This document shows positions 33,901-48,616 of a stretch of 48,616 nucleotides of DNA, piece by piece. Below the pieces are notes generated by a model. That model was not told the DNA's origin, did not search any database, and worked only from the letters and a program-made list of their open reading frames with translations. How positions within the stretch are numbered: position 1 is the stretch's first letter; every line of letters begins with the position of its first letter. Made by a program: the position numbers and the translations under genes. Source of the DNA: Vermamoeba vermiformis (taxonomy: Eukaryota); the NCBI GenBank assembly GCA_045837725.1, contig JBEWZL010000048.1, forward strand, positions 248,001-296,616, written 5' to 3'.

Positions 33901-36148
33901 CAATGGTCACAACGCAGTGCCTCGGGGTATATTCCACCAGCTTTGCGAGGATTCTCAGCCAACAAAATGCACAACAAGGCCTACATCTACGGTGGAAAGC
34001 ATCAAATGAGGCCCACCAAGAAGTTATTCGTGTTGGATCTGGACACGCTAGAATGGGCGCAAGTAGAAGCGTAAGTGTGGCTTGTTGAAGCGTCGATTAT
34101 TTCTTGCCTAACGTTCTGTCTAGTGTCTCAAAGGAAGGTGTCGAGCCCACTGAACGAGCCAATCATTGCGGCGTGTTCTTCGGCAAGCGATTGTTCTTGT
34201 TGGGCGGTATTGAACACGATGAAAAGTCGCCAGACAGTATGAGTAATGCTCCATATTAGATAGTTACACTTAACTAACATCAAGACAGTTATTGACGTGT
34301 TTGATCCCGAAACTATGACATGGCAGCAACCACCAGCTGTGATTGGCACTCCAGCCAATGTCGGCTTTGAATGGGCACTTGTCGTACGAAATTATCAAGT
34401 GCTCGTGTTTGGAGGATTCGAAGACACACCGTTCTGGGTATTTAACTACGATGAAGTGCACAACACAGTCACGTGGGTGAATCCTAAGGTCAGTGGCAGC
34501 ATCCCTCGATCACGTGTATCTCAATGCGGAGATATTGCCGACAACAAGCTTGCCATGTTTGGTGGCAGTTACAAGAACGAAGTGTTCGATGATTTGAACA
34601 TTTTGATCACCGAAGAAGAAAGTTTCCCGCTCGAATCAGATCTGCGCAAAGTTGTTGATTCAAAGGACTTTCACGATGTAGAGGTGAGTATATTGGAAAA
34701 CACAATATTGGCTGGTAACTAATCACTGCGGGTAGATCATCTTGGAGGACCGTAACGGAACCACTTCAAAGTTCTTCGCGCACAAGATCATTTTGGACAC
34801 TAGATCGAGTGTGTTCCGTGCGTTAATTGCAGAGCTCGAAGCAAAGCAGTATCCAGGTTCAAAAATTTTGCAGATCCGTTTGAATGATATCAGTCGTGGT
34901 GTGCTGGCACTCTTGCTCGAGTTTGTCTACACTGACAGCGTGCGCGCACCTCCTCAAATGGCTTTAGAGCTCGTGCACGTGACCAAAAAGTACCTGCCTG
35001 ACCGACATTTGCGACTAGTGCATCAGGTACGAAACTATTGTTCTAATTACAGTACTGCGAGAGACAGCGTCTAACACAAGAGCAGATCATTCGTGATGTC
35101 GGTCACACGGACAATCATCAAGCAGTGCTGCAAGAACAGGTGTACAGCGCATTCAACAATCCCAAGCACTCAGACATTACATTTATCTTGCCAGACAAGA
35201 GCAAGTTCTACGCGCACAAAGTCATCTTGGGCTCTCGTTGCGATCACTTCAGAGCACTGTTCAGCTCAGGATTCGACGAGAGCAAAGTGACGCAGATCGA
35301 CGTGACAAGTGTCAAACAAGAGATCTTCTTGAAGGTCATGCAATTCTTGTACAGCAATCACACTGAGATAACACACGAAGATGCCGTAGATTTGTTAATT
35401 GCTGCTGATTTGTATCGCATTCCTGACTTGATCGCCAACTGCGAGGAGTTGTTGATGGTACGTTCCAGACCAATCTTTCGTTTTGCGATGGACAATAATA
35501 TACTCTCTGTAGCGACACTTGGATGACGACAATGTGATTGGCATGTTCCAAGTCGCTGAGATGTACAACGCCGCACAATTGCAGTCGTGCACACTCGCGT
35601 ACATCATGCGCGACTACGAACGTATCAGCCAATCAGACGATTACAAGGCTTTGACCAAGTCTCAGCTTAACATCATCGAGAACAAGCGTTATGATCTCAC
35701 CTCTCGATCCTCGCACAGCAGTGGCAGTGAACATGAGGCTCATGAAAGTCATGCGGATCTGGGTCCTGACACGCACATGGACAACATGAATCCTTGGGCC
35801 TTAAATAATAACAACAATAATAACATGCCCAATAACAATAACAATAACAACAACAATAATAATAATAACAATAATAATCACGACGGAGACGATGGTGAAA
35901 AGAAGTTTTCATCAGACGGATCGGAAGGCTCGTCAACACTGACGCTGAATAACAATAACATTGAGAATAATAACAATAACAACAACAATACTAATGTAAA
36001 GAAAGCAAAGACAATTAAGCGCAAGACAGAGAAGCCAGAAGAGAATCAAGAGAGCTCATCGACTGCCATGACGTTGTTGGCCCTTACTACAGCTGTCATT
36101 ACTGCATCAATATTTTGGTTCGCGTACAAGAGGGTGCAGCGCGAGTAA
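30950..36148 (+). CDS. Ankyrin-SPRY-ankyrin-Kelch-BTB-BTB protein with poly-Asn region and C-terminal membrane anchor
   Basis: ANK (TPLHLAAGQG, TALHKAA, TSLHWAV); SPRY (GKWYYEV, SYAYDG, VVGCYADLDQGTVSFSLNGESLGEAF, LFPAVSL); Kelch (PEGRYHH, LYVLGG, AYIYGG, LAMFGG); two BTB (FFAHKIILDTRSSVFRAL; FYAHKVILGSRCDHFRALF); terminal TM LLALTTAVITASIFWFAY-KR. Confidence 0.85.
35803..35990 (+). repeat. Coding (AAT/AAC)n poly-asparagine microsatellites
   Basis: Runs such as aataacaataacaataacaacaacaataataataataacaataataat encoding N tracts. Confidence 0.9.
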
Positions 36149-41454: not shown

Positions 41455-42519
41455 ATGGTAATGATAAGTATTGGCTACTACTGCGGTCTAACGGATACTT
41501 TAGGAAGTGCCAATTGAAATCTGGTTCAAAATTTTTGATTATCTGCTCCACGATTTATCAGAACAAAAATTACCAACGTCTCCATTTGCTAGAGTACGAG
41601 TGTGTTTGGTATTTTTGAAAGCAGTCTCAGCAGAATTAAATCGGATGTGCAAGACATTTATTAAAACAATTCCGAAATCAGGCTTAGAAAGGCGACCAGA
41701 CTTGATGGAGTATCTAGTCCTTAATGGATATTTCTCGTGCTTAATATATATGCACGAAATAGGAGCAAAATGGACCAACACGGTGATTGCAAGCGCATTG
41801 AGCAAAAACGACTTCAAAGTTGTCAAATACGTTATTGAAAACAATACTAGCAATCGATGGGACTACAAAACATGTTTGGACCTCTCAATGCAATACAATT
41901 GTCTCGAAGCGATCAAATACTTTCACGAGGCATCAGCGGACTGGATGGGCTTGACTTGCACAAAAATCGTTGAGAAAGGCAGTTTGGAATGCTTGCAATA
42001 TGCACGCGAAAGAGGATGTCCTTTCGACGAAGAGACATGCGAGGAATCAGTGCGTACTGGTCATTTAGACTGTTTGAAATACGTTCATGAAAACGATCTT
42101 GGAGCTACACGACAACTGACATTGCAGCTGTGAACGGAGACCTTGCGTGCCTTAAATATGCAATCGATAATGGATGCATTTGCTTATCGACAGTTTACCT
42201 GCACTGCGCGAAGAATGGCGACCTAGCCATGATGAAGTACCTTTACGAGAACACATCCGTCGCGTGGCATAGCGACACGTGTTACACCGCAGCACTGCAC
42301 AATCACATGCACTGTCTCAGATACGCGTATGACAACGACGCGCCATTCAACGAGCGCAATGTCGTCCATGCCTGCAAAACAACTGAATGTTTGCAGTTCG
42401 TGCACGATGCGGGCTATGGCTGGAATGACTATTGGTGCAACGCGCATGACGCGCAGTCAGTCATGTTCAGTCAATACGCGCACGAACAGGATTGGTGTAA
42501 ACTGTGTAGATTCAAATAA
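41455..42519 (+). pseudogene. F-box-like plus degenerate ankyrin-repeat gene (giant-virus/amoeba type), frameshifted at ~42095
   Basis: ATG, 46-nt intron 41458-41503, then EVPIEIWFKIFDYL; repeats GxLxCLxYxxExGC(P)W/F (GSLECLQYARERGCPFDE, GHLDCLKYVHEN, GDLACLKYAIDNGC); frame changes between HEN and WSYTT. Confidence 0.72.
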
Positions 42520-42585
42520 GGATAAAGTTTGTTAAGAAAGGACCATCATTTATAATGAGCTAAGTCTTTTGGTACAAAACAGAAC

Positions 42586-43491
42586 TTAATCGTCTTGATC
42601 CTCAATTCCGTTATCTTTCCATGGCTCAGCTTGTTGTTCTTCTTCCTCTGAAGATGACATTGAGGCTTCTTCGTCTTCTTCTTTTTTGGGCTTTTCTGCA
42701 CCGATACCCTCTAAAAAACAAAGCAGTTAGATCCACATCTTATCATTAGCAGCAGGGATAAAAGTTCGCGTTAATAATGGCTCACCTGACTGCCAGTACA
42801 TGCTCGCGTTATATTTAGTAACGGCTTTAGTGCCCTCTGATACAGCGTGCTTAGCGAGTTCGCCGGGCAGTAGCAATCGAACGGCAGTTTGAATTTCTCG
42901 CGAGGAAATCGTTTGCCTCATATTGTATCTGCCGCAATAGGTTACTACTATTCGCTTAAGTACTATTGAGGCAATAACTGTACCTTGCTAAGCGTCCAGC
43001 TTCCGTGGCGATCCGGTCAAACAGATCGTTCATAAAAGAGTTCATTATCGTCATAGCTTTTTGTGAAATGCCAAGGTTAGGATGCACTTGCTTCAGTACT
43101 TTATAGATATAAGTAGCGAAGTCAGAGTGCTTGGATGACTACGAATTAAATGTCAATGTCACATCCAAAGCAATTGAAAAGAACTTCAGGATTAAGCTTT
43201 AAATAATTATTGTATTCAAATATTTATCCACGAGCATTTAAATTAGGTGGTAACATATAACGCTTATTATTGCGATTTTTCTGGGTATTTTTGAATTACC
43301 TTTTTCTTTGCAATTGGGACAGGCGGCTCAACAGCAGCGTCACTGTTACTCGTAGTATTATTTACATTATTATTTTGAGCAGTTTCAGTCTTTCCGAGCT
43401 CTTGACGGCGGTTATTAAACTCTTCTTCCAAGATCAAGCCAGACTGGAGCAGCTCAGTGAGCTTGGCAAGGTCTGTTTGATTGTTCTCCAT
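42586..43491 (-). CDS. Atypical histone H2B (204 aa): N-terminal SHOCT-like domain, H2B fold, acidic C-terminal extension
   Basis: Exons 43491-43300, 43138-42984, 42928-42786, 42710-42586 splice in frame (615 nt). Core [82 protein letters not shown] is clearly H2B. Confidence 0.9.
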
Positions 43492-43729: not shown

Positions 43730-45159
43730 TTAATTATGATTGGCATTATTGAATGCAATCATATCGTACGGATAGTGCAAGGGTATGGCAGACACGTGGT
43801 CTAATTCAGCCACTTGCTCATTGGTCAGTTGAAACAGACCAGCTTGCAAGTTGTCTTCGAGCTGAGCTAACGTCTTAGCGCCAATAATTACTGATGAGAC
43901 TTGAGGTTTGTGCAATAACCATCGAAGAGCTACTTGCGGTACTGTTCTACCGGCTTGTTTGGCGATCTCTTCGACCTAAAAAAGAGCGATCGTTAAAGAA
44001 AATTCAATTTGAAGGAAATTATGATTACCTTCTTAATGACGCTCCAAGTATGATCTGTCGCTTGCACGTTAAAGAAAGGTAATTTTGAATTCGCAACCCA
44101 ACCCATACGAGAATTTGGATCGGCACTATCAGCGGCCAAATCCGTTGACGACGAGTATCGACCACTTAATAAGCCGCCTAAAAATGATAAATAAGTTCGG
44201 TTATAGATATTTCGCGGTATTACCTTTCAAAGGGCTCCAAGGCAGTATGCCAAGTCCTTCTCGTTTACACACCTCAAACGCATCTCCTTCAGAGTTTCGT
44301 TCGAACAATGAATATTGTTGCTGCAAGCTAATATACTCTAAAAAGATGTTATAATCGAAATTTCCATTTAATTTGTACGCACGTTCGAGGCCCATCTCTT
44401 TCGCCAAATCCAGCATTTTTTGAAGTTGCCAGCCACCGAGATTACTCGCACCAATGTAGCGGACTTTACCGCACCTAACGAGATCATTGAGCGTAGTCAA
44501 GGTCTCTTTGAGCGATGTTGAACTGTCCCAAATAGCCACGCAATGCAGATCCACGTACGAAGTTTGCAATCGTTCCAACGTCCTTTAAGCGATATTAATT
44601 ATCGAAATAAAATGTCGCTCAATACCCTTCCAATGCGGCTATAATATGCTTGCGAGAAGCTCCTTTGTCGTTAGGTCCAGGACCGAGTGGCAAGTAAGTT
44701 TTTGTGCCCAAGACAAAGTCCTCGCGCTTTTTCGTCGAAAGCCATTTACCGACTACATAGAGTATATTAGAGACGATATAATAGCTATTCGGTGATATTT
44801 ACCAATTTTTTCAGAGTCGAACGGACCGTAAAAGTCAGCCAGATCCAAGAAATTGCCGCCGAGCTCAGCGAATCGATCCATCATTTTAAAACTCGTTTCT
44901 AATATAGCAGCGACAATCAATCAATGCGTTGCATATTTAAGCTAATATTATAGAGCATACCTTCATCTGCGCTCGGTAACTTAAAGTTATTTGGTCCAAA
45001 AGTCATTGTGCCTTTAATTAATGGCAATCAGGATGGAAATTCGAGTATTACTCGGATCCTATTATTATTTGATGCCAATATCTTACCTAAGCACAATTCA
45101 GAGACCTTCAGGCCGCTGGATCCAAGATTGCGGTACTTCAATTTCGGTGTTTGTTGCAT
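43730..45159 (-). CDS. Aldo-keto reductase (aryl-alcohol dehydrogenase / Kv-beta-like branch)
   Basis: YRNLGSSGLKVSELCLGTMTFG, GGNFLDLADFYG, GASRKHI, GKVRYIGASN, QQQYSL, LPWSPL, VIIGAKTLAQLEDNL; about 7 short introns. Confidence 0.92.
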
Positions 45160-46613: not shown

Positions 46614-46996
46614 ATGAGTGGACGGTAAGACGAGATCTAGATCTAGATTAGATCATGGATCTTGACCATAGCGAAATTATTAATATTAATATTATTATTA
46701 TTGGCATTAGCTAAACCTAATTAATTTGTGAACATAGGACGCGGTCGAAATTAGCAAAGTCAAATAATAATAAAAATCAAAATAATAATGTGAGCAAGCC
46801 TGGCAAACCTAAACGCAAACAAGTGTACAAAAGCAATAATAATAACACCAATAATAATACCAATAATAATACCAATGTCGAGCCTATAAGCGTTGAAGAC
46901 GAACCGATTTGGGAGACCCATTCTGAAATCTTTGCACAAAATTATCGTCCTGTAGTGACCAGAGCGACAGTTCTGCGCATGTACCATTCAGCTAGG
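46614..46996 (+). pseudogene. 5' part of a basic, Asn-rich protein gene starting MSGRTRSK, apparently truncated
   Basis: Exon 46614-46624, intron 46625-46737 (GTAAGA..ATAG), exon 46738-46996 in frame; then donor GTACGT and branch CTAAC with no nearby acceptor. Confidence 0.5.
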
Positions 46997-48616
46997 GTAC
47001 GTACATATAATATAGTAGTTTAATTATTACTCTAACTGATCTGTCATATCCCTTTGATCCCTGCGCACGAAAAAAAATTAATTTCGGGCGAAGATATTGG
47101 TATTTCAATTAAATTGGGCATTTTTTTGCGCATTTATAAGCTATTTACACCTAGCTATAGGGAGGTTTTTGCTGAATTTCTTCGAGTAAAAAAAATAAAT
47201 AAATTATTACTCGATCTGGTCTTTAACGCGTCGCTCTGTCTTTTATCTTTGATAATATTGATGAAATAGCATACAATTAACTTTAGCAAGCTTATCACTT
47301 GCTGCCCTGTAGTTGCGGGCGATTCGCTGCCAAAAAAATAGTCTTTTCGCTGGCAAAACCGATTTATTATTCACTCCGCAATCACAGTACCATGAAGCAC
47401 GACCAAATCATCTACCAGAATAAGCTGGGGTGACACCAAATCACCTTGGCCGCGTCCACTGGAGATGCTGCGGCCACATTCATGGGAAATTATCGAACTG
47501 CAAGTTATATTTGGTTTGATAATCGGAAAAAAATTGTCTTATATATAGCCATGCATTGTCGATAAAATACTAGCTGAAGAGAAGCAAACAGGTATAAAAA
47601 TTTCAGATTCGAATTTTTTAATTTTTAAATATTTTCTGCACGAGCACTGTTACAAATCAATGCTTCTAAACTTACACTTACCTTTATAGATTGCAGTTAT
47701 TAAATTTAAATCATTAATGTGCAAATTCTAACGGCTATATTTTTAGGCGGCAAGTTTTTCGCGCACGATCTGAATACAACAGGTATCGATGCGGTAAAAC
47801 AATGCACTACGTAATTTTAAATGACTAATTCAATACGGAAACAGCAACGGTAAGTAATAATTTACGTACCATAGTTGCGGCGAATGCGTGCCAGCAAAAT
47901 TCAAGTTTTTACAGTTCCAAGGTGAATTTCATCGCCTATCTAACACTGTGTATTATATTTAGGATTGTTAAAACTATTGGACACTATTAATTATCAATAA
48001 ACAATGTTAAACAATCCGGCGTCTAAGGGTGAAACCTTAGCGCCGCTACAACGAGAAAGTTACGCGTTGATTCTCGACGATGTGGGTCAGAGTATGGTCT
48101 GGAGGTCGTGTTGCTTCGGTGACACCACTGGTTCGGAACAGCACTCTCACTGGCACTGAGTTGGATGGGCTAGAAAGTGACTTGTCACTTGCCGTAGCGG
48201 ACACTCTTTTGTTGTACGGTCTCCTTTATGGAGGGGTGTCATCTTGATGCCTGCGACCTTTATCTTGATGAATCGCATGGTTTTGGCCGTGTCAGTCACC
48301 TCAACGTGACTTCGACACTTGGATGGGTTAGGGCCCGGCCAAATTCCTCCCTATGAATACTTAGGCTTGCTCAACCAAGTCTTGTATTGCGATTTATCCC
48401 TTTTTAATGATAAAACAAAGAAATAAGCTTGGGGAAGTGGATCGGATCCGGGGCTGATCTGGATCCACGCAGGGGTGTGGCGCACTGTCAATGGACATCG
48501 CCCAACAAAATTGTACCATTTTTTGTACTACAGTCTCTTCTGGCGATTAACGGAAATCAAAGGTCCTGAATTTTTGTATAATTTTTATCTAAAAGCATTG
48601 GCCGGCCGAAGAGGGA

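Follow-up and report, generated by a model that had tools for sequence, protein, structure and literature searches.

A histone H2B variant with an N-terminal SHOCT-type module and an acidic tail in Vermamoeba vermiformis and other Amoebozoa

A stretch of 48,616 nucleotides (nt) from the genome assembly of Vermamoeba vermiformis (GCA_045837725.1, contig JBEWZL010000048.1, positions 248,001 to 296,616 of the forward strand; hereafter the window, numbered from its first letter) was found to contain a gene for a variant of histone H2B. This gene, named here SHOCT-H2B, is located on the minus strand at 43491..42586 and consists of four exons with a coding sequence of 615 nt, specifying a product of 204 amino acids (aa). 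The three introns of 161, 55 and 75 nt all begin with GT and end with AG, and the frame is open across the joined exons. The features of the gene are as follows.

43300..43491, minus strand: exon 1, 64 codons ending in phase 0; SHOCT-type module and an Asn/Ser/Thr-rich, non-basic linker, the last three residues of which are Lys
43489-43491, minus strand: start codon, within exon 1
43378..43491, minus strand: SHOCT-type two-helix module, residues 1-38 (match to Pfam PF09851 and AlphaFold2 (AF2) model)
43396-43470, minus strand: Pfam SHOCT match, residues 8-32 (PF09851 profile positions 3-27 of 28)
43139..43299, minus strand: intron 1, 161 nt, GT..AG; separates the linker from the histone fold; skipped in contigs of sequencing runs X5 and X10
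42984..43138, minus strand: exon 2; basic-patch remnant followed by the first part of the H2B fold (alpha1, L1, alpha2); match to Pfam PF00125
42929..42983, minus strand: intron 2, 55 nt, GT..AG; splits the Arg codon directly before YNMRQT; skipped in contigs of X5 and X10
42786..42928, minus strand: exon 3; L2 (YNMRQT), alpha3, alphaC with AVTKY, start of the C-terminal extension
42711..42785, minus strand: intron 3, 75 nt, GT..AG, phase 1; skipped in contigs of X5 and X10
42586..42710, minus strand: exon 4; encodes the acidic, Ser-rich tail (conserved Ser and acidic runs, PW motif, ..QDD end)
42586-42588, minus strand: stop codon TAA, at the end of exon 4
42547..42585, minus strand: 3' untranslated region of at least 39 nt; record 3 of X5 runs from 42547 through exons 4, 3 and 2

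The residual basic patch is made up of the three Lys residues which end exon 1 and the SSKH which begins exon 2. An initial annotation, made from the letters alone, had described the spliced 204-aa product with these coordinates, the Asn-rich linker, the L2 loop YNMRQT, the motif AVTKY and the remnant KKKSSKH; all of these were reproduced.

Four of 24 sequencing runs were compared with the gene, two as contigs (X5, X10) and two as raw RNA reads (X21, X23). Contigs of X5 and X10 were found to be without 42711-42785 and 42929-42983, to the exact intron boundaries. Positions 43139-43299 were likewise missing exactly from an X5 contig, leaving the joint 43300/43138, and the same joint was present in X10 with one base changed. 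The splice junctions predicted in the initial annotation (43299/43139, 42983/42929 and 42785/42711) match these joints, in runs whose RNA nature is a guess. In record 1 of X10 (509 nt) exons 4, 3 and 2 and part of exon 1 are joined in a single contig, and a second spliced form was detected in X5, whose linker is three bases longer and which has five further differences over 128 nt. Compared to the window, X10 has no differences in exon 3, one synonymous change in exon 1 and one change in exon 2 (S65P); its tail carries eight base changes and two extra codons, nearly all of them Glu/Asp swaps or acidic gains. Frame and acidity are preserved. On this pattern the fold is constrained by its sequence and the tail by its composition.

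Runs X21 and X23 carry the species label of the DNA source, and about 46-48% of each was read. Nineteen and 33 reads, respectively, were placed on the gene, all on the core (42810-43166) and mostly with 90-95% likeness to the window; the depth on exons 1 and 4 was zero. The reads differ from the window mostly at synonymous positions, together with I75L and T94S, and their loose ends run into a tail like that of P0037, a relative described below. These cultures express a SHOCT-H2B of the P0037 type and not the window gene. The P0037-type gene may be a paralogue, or an orthologue from a divergent lineage carrying the same species label.

Relatives with the same architecture were identified by a series of searches. 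Exon 2, used in a word-indexed search, found P0037, a protein of 199 aa which is 86% identical over the exon; exon 1 alone, searched in the same manner against longer proteins, gave no score to any of 72 candidates. With P0037 as query P0177, P0207 and P0205 were obtained, and an exhaustive profile search added P0250. P0037 is a transcript of Vermamoeba vermiformis (Tubulinea, Echinamoebida) and P0250 a transcript of Clastostelium recurvatum (Evosea, Eumycetozoa), from Trinity assemblies in EukProt; P0205 is KAH3732859.1 of Pelomyxa schiedti (Evosea, Archamoebae), a gene model annotated merely as a core-histone superfamily protein. Identities to the window protein were 71% (P0037), 59% (P0177), 51% (P0207), 52% (P0205) and 45% (P0250), and a canonical H2B of Balamuthia gave 43%.

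A scan of metagenomes with an alignment of exon 1 gave 91 pattern matches, of which four were confirmed; two of these, L001 and L002, represent one SHOCT-H2B gene. The same scan with an alignment of the 40-aa module confirmed none of 147 pattern matches. The remaining loci, L003 (2501-2590) and L004 (2501-2560), encode only 20-30 N-terminal residues, which resemble helix 1 of the module, and no H2B lies near them. Together with the L001/L002 gene there are six further genes with the whole architecture (P0037, P0177, P0207, P0205, P0250 and L001/L002). Four parts are common to the family: the N-terminal module, a non-basic linker of variable length, an intact H2B fold and an acidic, Ser-rich tail.

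The gene structure is conserved as well. The L001 gene has four exons, and its intron 1 follows the linker in phase 0, as in the window gene. The Arg codon interrupted by intron 2 is again the one preceding YN; intron 3, whose splice site was read by eye, has phase 1 and lies no more than two codons from that of the window gene. The tail of L001 carries the Ser run, acidic run, PW and ..QDD end of the window protein. This tail motif is also common to P0037 and P0177; PW is found in four genes and is missing from three of the seven. Five short metagenomic proteins corresponding to exon 1 (P0216, P0217, P0218, P0220 and P0222) all break at the same place and continue with a read-through Val codon (GTN), consistent with a GT splice donor at the end of exon 1. 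A tRNA-Phe (GAA) gene was observed in L001 at 2412-2484 on the minus strand, about 240 nt downstream of its SHOCT-H2B gene. The initial annotation had proposed an architecture search across protists and giant viruses. Protist relatives were recovered in two amoebozoan phyla, but no giant-virus copy was found at this sensitivity, none of 140 pattern matches in viral contigs being confirmed.

On these grounds SHOCT-H2B is almost certainly a real, conserved gene of this four-part architecture. Judged from sequence, it is not a one-off but a family spread over two amoebozoan phyla and already present in databases under histone labels. The histone-only labels are explained by a SHOCT score below the Pfam cut-off. 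Intron-inclusive conservation across two phyla indicates that the gene is under selection and probably old. The opposite view, that exon 1 or exon 4 is foreign to the H2B core, as an artefact or in a decaying pseudogene, could draw on the zero depth of X21 and X23 over these two exons and on the empty first search with exon 1 alone. It is hardly credible, given that the X10 contig joins the four exons, that X5 holds all three joints, and that frame and splice consensus are intact. The four-part protein is moreover encoded by the Trinity transcripts of Vermamoeba and Clastostelium and by the Pelomyxa gene model, and the differences in X10 preserve frame and acidity.

The N-terminal module was compared with the SHOCT family. 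The window protein matches PF09851 with an expectation value (E) of 0.0018 and 18.4 bits, below the cut-off of 27. Scores of the other family sequences were 26.9 (P0217), 24.4 (P0216), 23.1 (P0177), 21.5 (P0218), 16.2 (P0222), 16.1 (P0037) and 12.6 bits (P0205), and no match was obtained for P0207, P0250, P0220 and P0225. Eight of 12 family sequences therefore match, at E of 3.8e-6 to 0.12, without gaps and over nearly the whole 28-position profile; no family member reaches 27 bits, and by Pfam's rule the module is not a SHOCT member.

The reverse comparison was made with a module profile of 40 positions, built from five modules and searched against 1.84 billion representative proteins. It gave 84 matches at E <= 1e-3, seven of them at E <= 1e-10. 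Apart from the family proteins P0037, P0207 and P0205, which were left out, the remaining 81 were scanned against Pfam. PF09851 was matched by 53 at E <= 1e-3 (best 1.2e-51), SHOCT_2 by 13, the SHOCT-like DUF1707 by 11, GvpG by 38 and DMAP_binding by 10. Among the proteins retrieved were bacterial-type C-terminal SHOCT domains above the cut-off, in P0270, an M48 peptidase (38.7 bits), and P0289 (28.6 bits). Three other proteins, P0219, P0221 and P0233 (821-1074 aa), have eight to nine matches to the module profile each, the last at the very C-terminus; proteins with multiple SHOCT domains have been reported in Naegleria (PMC3581485). The N-terminus of DMAP_binding may resemble SHOCT, as judged from the 10 of 81 proteins which matched it.

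An AF2 model of window residues 1-40, based on 32 sequences, shows two helices (2-17 and 22-38) with a turn at G18, and a predicted local distance difference test (pLDDT) of 94-96 over residues 11-30. Residues K10, L11, G18, I20, E24 and R28 are invariant in the family, and there are no gaps from K10 to R28 in the 32 sequences. The SHOCT domain (PF09851; Eberhardt et al. 2013, PMC3581485) is described in the text of its defining paper as about 30 aa long, with two amphipathic helices, a conserved Gly and Glu, and no insertions or deletions in the helices or loop. It was reported there from 19 eukaryote species, including Naegleria, trypanosomes and Dictyostelium. The module of SHOCT-H2B shares the size, the helices, the Gly and Glu and the lack of indels, and profile matches were obtained in both directions; it differs in scoring below the cut-off, in being N-terminal and not in the usual C-terminal position, and in being fused to a core histone. 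N-terminal cases on record in the same paper are CorA, Tic20, a kinase and PUB (PMC3581485). Based on the reciprocal profile matches and on a two-helix model fitting the published description, the module was classified as a divergent SHOCT-type module. The earlier claim of a SHOCT block in place of the Lys-rich tail is upheld by the reciprocal search (53 of 81) and the model, but not by the score of 18.4 bits against a cut-off of 27.

A convergent origin, in which the block is an amphipathic helix-turn-helix with no homology to SHOCT, is improbable. In its favour, the whole family lies below the Pfam cut-off with four of 12 sequences unmatched, the motif is short and of simple composition, and the stretch is also matched by other short-helix families (38 of the 81 proteins for GvpG, 10 for DMAP_binding). 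A sequence search of PDB with the module profile returned five matches, none of them meaningful (best E 0.39). These points are opposed by the significance of the reciprocal search among 1.84 billion proteins and its retrieval of P0270 and P0289, by ungapped matches over profile positions 2-27 of 28 with the SHOCT Gly and Glu invariant, and by the naming in UniRef of a closely similar Polysphondylium N-terminal module as "SHOCT domain-containing protein".

The remainder of the protein is an H2B. The initial annotation had recognized an H2B with an intact fold, and exon 2 alone matches Pfam Histone PF00125 at E 1.6e-11 with 44.9 bits, well above the cut-off of 26.4; the orthologue P0037 scores 68.3 bits. 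Using tblastn, exon 2 was 74% and exon 3 77% identical to Balamuthia H2B. The fold was modelled and compared to PDB using P0037, as orthologue of the spliced window protein. In this model (four sequences) the H2B helices are found at residues 66-79, 87-114, 122-132 and 135-156 (pLDDT 85-94) and the N-terminal hairpin has a pLDDT of 82-92, and the linker (36-66) and tail (157-199) are disordered. The best Foldseek matches in PDB are nucleosomal H2B chains, with a target-normalised template modelling (TM) score of about 0.8 and, in most rows, about 78-84% identity over about 87 columns. A look-up of P0037 in the ESM Atlas returned ordinary H2B clusters only (score 0.83). The motif AVTKY is present in the window protein and its Lys is invariant in the family alignment. 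Canonical amoebozoan H2Bs, such as those of Balamuthia mandrillaris (P0098; 74-77% over exons 2 and 3) and Luapelamoeba hula (P0055), have the same fold and share AVTKY.

A tree was constructed from 81 H2B cores over 92 columns (LG+G4, quick search), with identical cores entered once. The rows were database H2Bs, P0250 and P0298 among them, in which two core motifs each occurred exactly once; the window protein was added to these. The six variants, together with canonical H2Bs of Amoebozoa, make up a group of 22 (support 79), within which four of them form a cluster (support 80) and P0177 and P0207 have no supported position. When the six variants were constrained to one clade, the tree was 26.7 log-likelihood units better than the free quick search, and it was not rejected by the approximately unbiased (AU) test (p = 0.852). 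A single origin of the six is compatible with the tree, and the shared introns and tails speak for it, but with few columns and long branches it is not proven.

Outside the fold the charge of the protein is reversed. The computed isoelectric point (pI) is 4.3-5.1 in all six full-length members (4.94 for the window protein), as against 9.65-10.5 in six canonical-type H2Bs. The region preceding the core has a net charge of -2 to -14 in the variants (69 aa and -2 in the window protein, including the folded module) and +10 to +14 in the canonical-type proteins. The acidic tails are 39-48 aa long with a net charge of -13 to -21. The C-terminal extension of the window protein, already described as acidic in the initial annotation, is 48 aa with a net charge of -13, in comparison to extensions of 4-19 aa in the six canonical-type proteins; the variant gene also differs in having three introns. 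Each variant tail contains one to four S/T-x-x-D/E sites, a pattern which is the consensus of CK2. The core itself remains basic, at +4 to +6 in the variants compared to +6 to +7 in canonical-type proteins. In the module (residues 1-36), eight acidic and four basic residues were counted by hand, and this net acidity argues against a DNA-binding role.

Acidic H2Bs of other designs were also observed. P0056 of Endostelium zonatum (162 aa, pI 4.7) has a 72-aa N-terminal region with a net charge of -20 and no SHOCT module, and its C-terminus is short and normal, a design different from SHOCT-H2B. P0042 of Gocevia fonbrunei and the metagenomic P0211 carry acidic C-terminal extensions of 19 and 26 aa (net -7 and -9); P0042 has an ordinary basic N-tail, and P0211, which is truncated, a 20-aa remnant of one. 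From these sequences, acidic H2B C-tails may be a wider amoebozoan trait.

The reading preferred here, with a probability which we place slightly above even for the real gene, its architecture and the mechanism taken as a whole, is that SHOCT-H2B is a nucleosomal, replication-independent H2B variant specific to Amoebozoa. It builds on what the sequences show, namely the gene model, the transcript joints, an architecture and intron positions conserved between Tubulinea and Evosea, a module of SHOCT type and the reversal of charge. Pairing with H2A and entry into nucleosomes are suggested by the conserved fold, the near-canonical charge of the core and the invariant AVTKY Lys, and replication independence by the three introns and the lack of a histone 3' stem-loop. 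By the inferred mechanism, the variant would bring into the nucleosome neither a basic tail nor most of the basic patch before alpha1, so that contacts of the tail with DNA and between nucleosomes would be lost; two acidic tails per particle, each extending from alphaC, would make the disc face more negative. The outcome could be a looser nucleosome, or one which binds basic proteins. The tethered, net-acidic SHOCT module would then serve as a handle for docking of proteins and not as a DNA binder.

Several points weigh against this. The RNA nature of X5 and X10 is guessed, and the presence or absence of the joined form in DNA runs is not reported for the comparison with these two runs; in the RNA reads of X21 and X23 both terminal exons have zero depth, and it is the P0037-type gene which is expressed. 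The sub-threshold SHOCT scores and the incomplete grouping of the variants in the tree belong here also. In the core, the Lys of L2 is replaced variously across six proteins (M, M, K, H, L or S), the L1 loop is relaxed and the basic patch before alpha1 is reduced; such relaxation of DNA-facing features is equally expected of a protein which no longer wraps DNA.

A soluble, non-nucleosomal protein was considered as the main alternative. It would pair with H2A and its acidic tail would fold onto the DNA-binding surface of the dimer, making it a self-chaperoned storage form or a decoy which withholds or delivers H2A. This would agree with the relaxed L2 Lys and basic patch, with the acidity of the whole protein (pI 4.94, tail net -13) and with the conserved aromatic residue of PW that comes after the acidic run in four genes. 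Acidic-plus-aromatic motifs are a mode by which histone chaperones bind H2A-H2B, and the PW tail resembles them. It is nevertheless judged unlikely, because a decoy would not need a core charge near the canonical one or the invariance of the AVTKY Lys, which is used on nucleosomes. The fold, moreover, is close to canonical (74-77% to Balamuthia H2B, and exon 3 unchanged between the window and X10), and the PW motif is missing in three of seven genes.

A further alternative is the cross-linker suggested in the initial annotation: self-association of SHOCT modules would bridge variant nucleosomes in trans and bring chromatin into a compact or gel-like state, such as might occur in cysts. A long flexible tether carries the module, which is an amphipathic hairpin of two helices, and oligomerisation is one of the hypotheses raised in the SHOCT-defining paper (PMC3581485). 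The size-exclusion test described by its authors gave this hypothesis no support, so that the oligomerising role which the initial annotation took from the literature is without backing from its own source; that test used a single bacterial SHOCT domain fused to Cd4d3+4, and not the domain considered here (PMC3581485). The two acidic tails per nucleosome also argue against simple charge compaction, and cross-linking is accordingly given little credence. All three roles suggested in the initial annotation, namely destabilising nucleosomes, cross-linking them and serving as an H2A decoy, are speculative.

A bolder form of the nucleosomal reading is regarded as possible but doubtful. Here SHOCT-H2B would represent an ancient class of acidic H2B which predates the split of Tubulinea and Evosea, bears a SHOCT module of prokaryote type and marks specialised chromatin (open, stage-specific or that of cysts), the module recruiting a dedicated partner or bridging nucleosomes and the tail being chaperone-like or binding H1 or the H4 tail. 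If true, SHOCT-H2B would be the first known case of a core histone acquiring a folded SHOCT domain, and would offer a tractable eukaryotic context for that domain.

With respect to the origin of the module, exon shuffling within Amoebozoa appears to be the simplest explanation, since exon 1 consists of exactly the module and linker, ends in phase 0, and the same module heads non-histone amoebozoan proteins. P0232 of Polysphondylium violaceum, P0256 of Tieghemostelium lacteum and P0272 of Balamuthia mandrillaris begin with it at residue 1 or 5 (E of 3.5e-6, 5.6e-5 and 3.0e-4 with the family profile); unlike SHOCT-H2B they are Asn-rich proteins of 524-582 aa with no histone fold. From sequence comparison these three are likely relatives of the donor of exon 1. 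A SHOCT-type module at the start was observed in eight proteins of 428-614 aa altogether, several of them Asn-rich (P0232, P0256, P0263, P0265, P0246, P0272, P0278 and P0290).

Among known systems macroH2A offers an analogy: there a linker connects the C-terminus of a core histone to a globular macro domain of about 200 aa, which is not of histone type. Both proteins hold a tethered, folded, non-histone module outside the core particle. MacroH2A is an H2A of another lineage with a C-terminal module and no acidic tail, and the variant is an H2B with an N-terminal 35-aa hairpin, so that the likeness is one of analogy and not of relationship. Among the variants of core histones those of H2B have been explored least, and to our knowledge and in the literature searched none has been described with a recognisable folded domain or with a reversed net charge. 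Lineage-specific H2B variants include H2B.V of trypanosomes and H2B.Z of Apicomplexa (PMC3380720), and germline variants have been reported from plants and mammals (PMC8857922). Like SHOCT-H2B, these are non-allelic paralogues confined to lineages, with a conserved fold and divergent tails.

No description of the SHOCT-H2B design was found in the literature searched, with subscription journals and supplements outside its coverage, and the initial annotation had likewise known of no such fusion. Within this coverage no paper contained both "SHOCT" and "H2B" as whole words. Searches on amoebozoan H2B variants, Vermamoeba H2B, and SHOCT with histone, largely at the level of titles and abstracts, returned no such protein, and the passages seen on Dictyostelium H2Bv1, H2Bv2 and H2Bv3 do not describe their domain structure. 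The main text of the SHOCT-defining paper (PMC3581485) nowhere uses the word "histone", and the Grau-Bove preprint has no occurrence of "SHOCT" or of "H2B variant".

The protein offers a natural experiment on the roles of the basic H2B tail and of the nucleosome disc face, a defined eukaryotic setting in which to find the function of the widespread SHOCT domain, and a clear case of a core histone gaining a domain through a phase-0 exon. With a pI of about 5, proteins of this type may escape histone preparations and annotation habits which assume basic proteins.

The genes surrounding SHOCT-H2B are ordinary eukaryotic ones. The open reading frames (ORFs) downstream encode BACK-domain, PKD-like and two ankyrin-repeat proteins, and those upstream an aldo/keto reductase and a RING-finger protein. 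The two ankyrin-repeat ORFs follow one another (41504-42519, plus strand) and run towards the 3' end of SHOCT-H2B, the second of them ending at a distance of 67 nt from its stop codon. In this region 42330-42522 is covered by an X5 contig. The aldo/keto reductase (43730-44584, minus strand) is directly upstream on the same strand, in at least two ORFs, and probably contains introns. Multi-histone queries detected no further histone gene in the 48.6-kb window, and hence no divergent H2A partner there. Rfam gave no match at the gathering score anywhere in the window, and hence no histone 3' stem-loop. A viral origin of SHOCT-H2B was considered and dropped in view of its spliceosomal introns, these neighbours and its grouping with amoebozoan H2Bs. 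Long Asn runs are encoded by the BACK-domain ORF at 35513-36148 (plus strand) and by an ORF at 46721-47023 (plus strand), which fits an amoebozoan genome of moderate guanine plus cytosine content (0.44).

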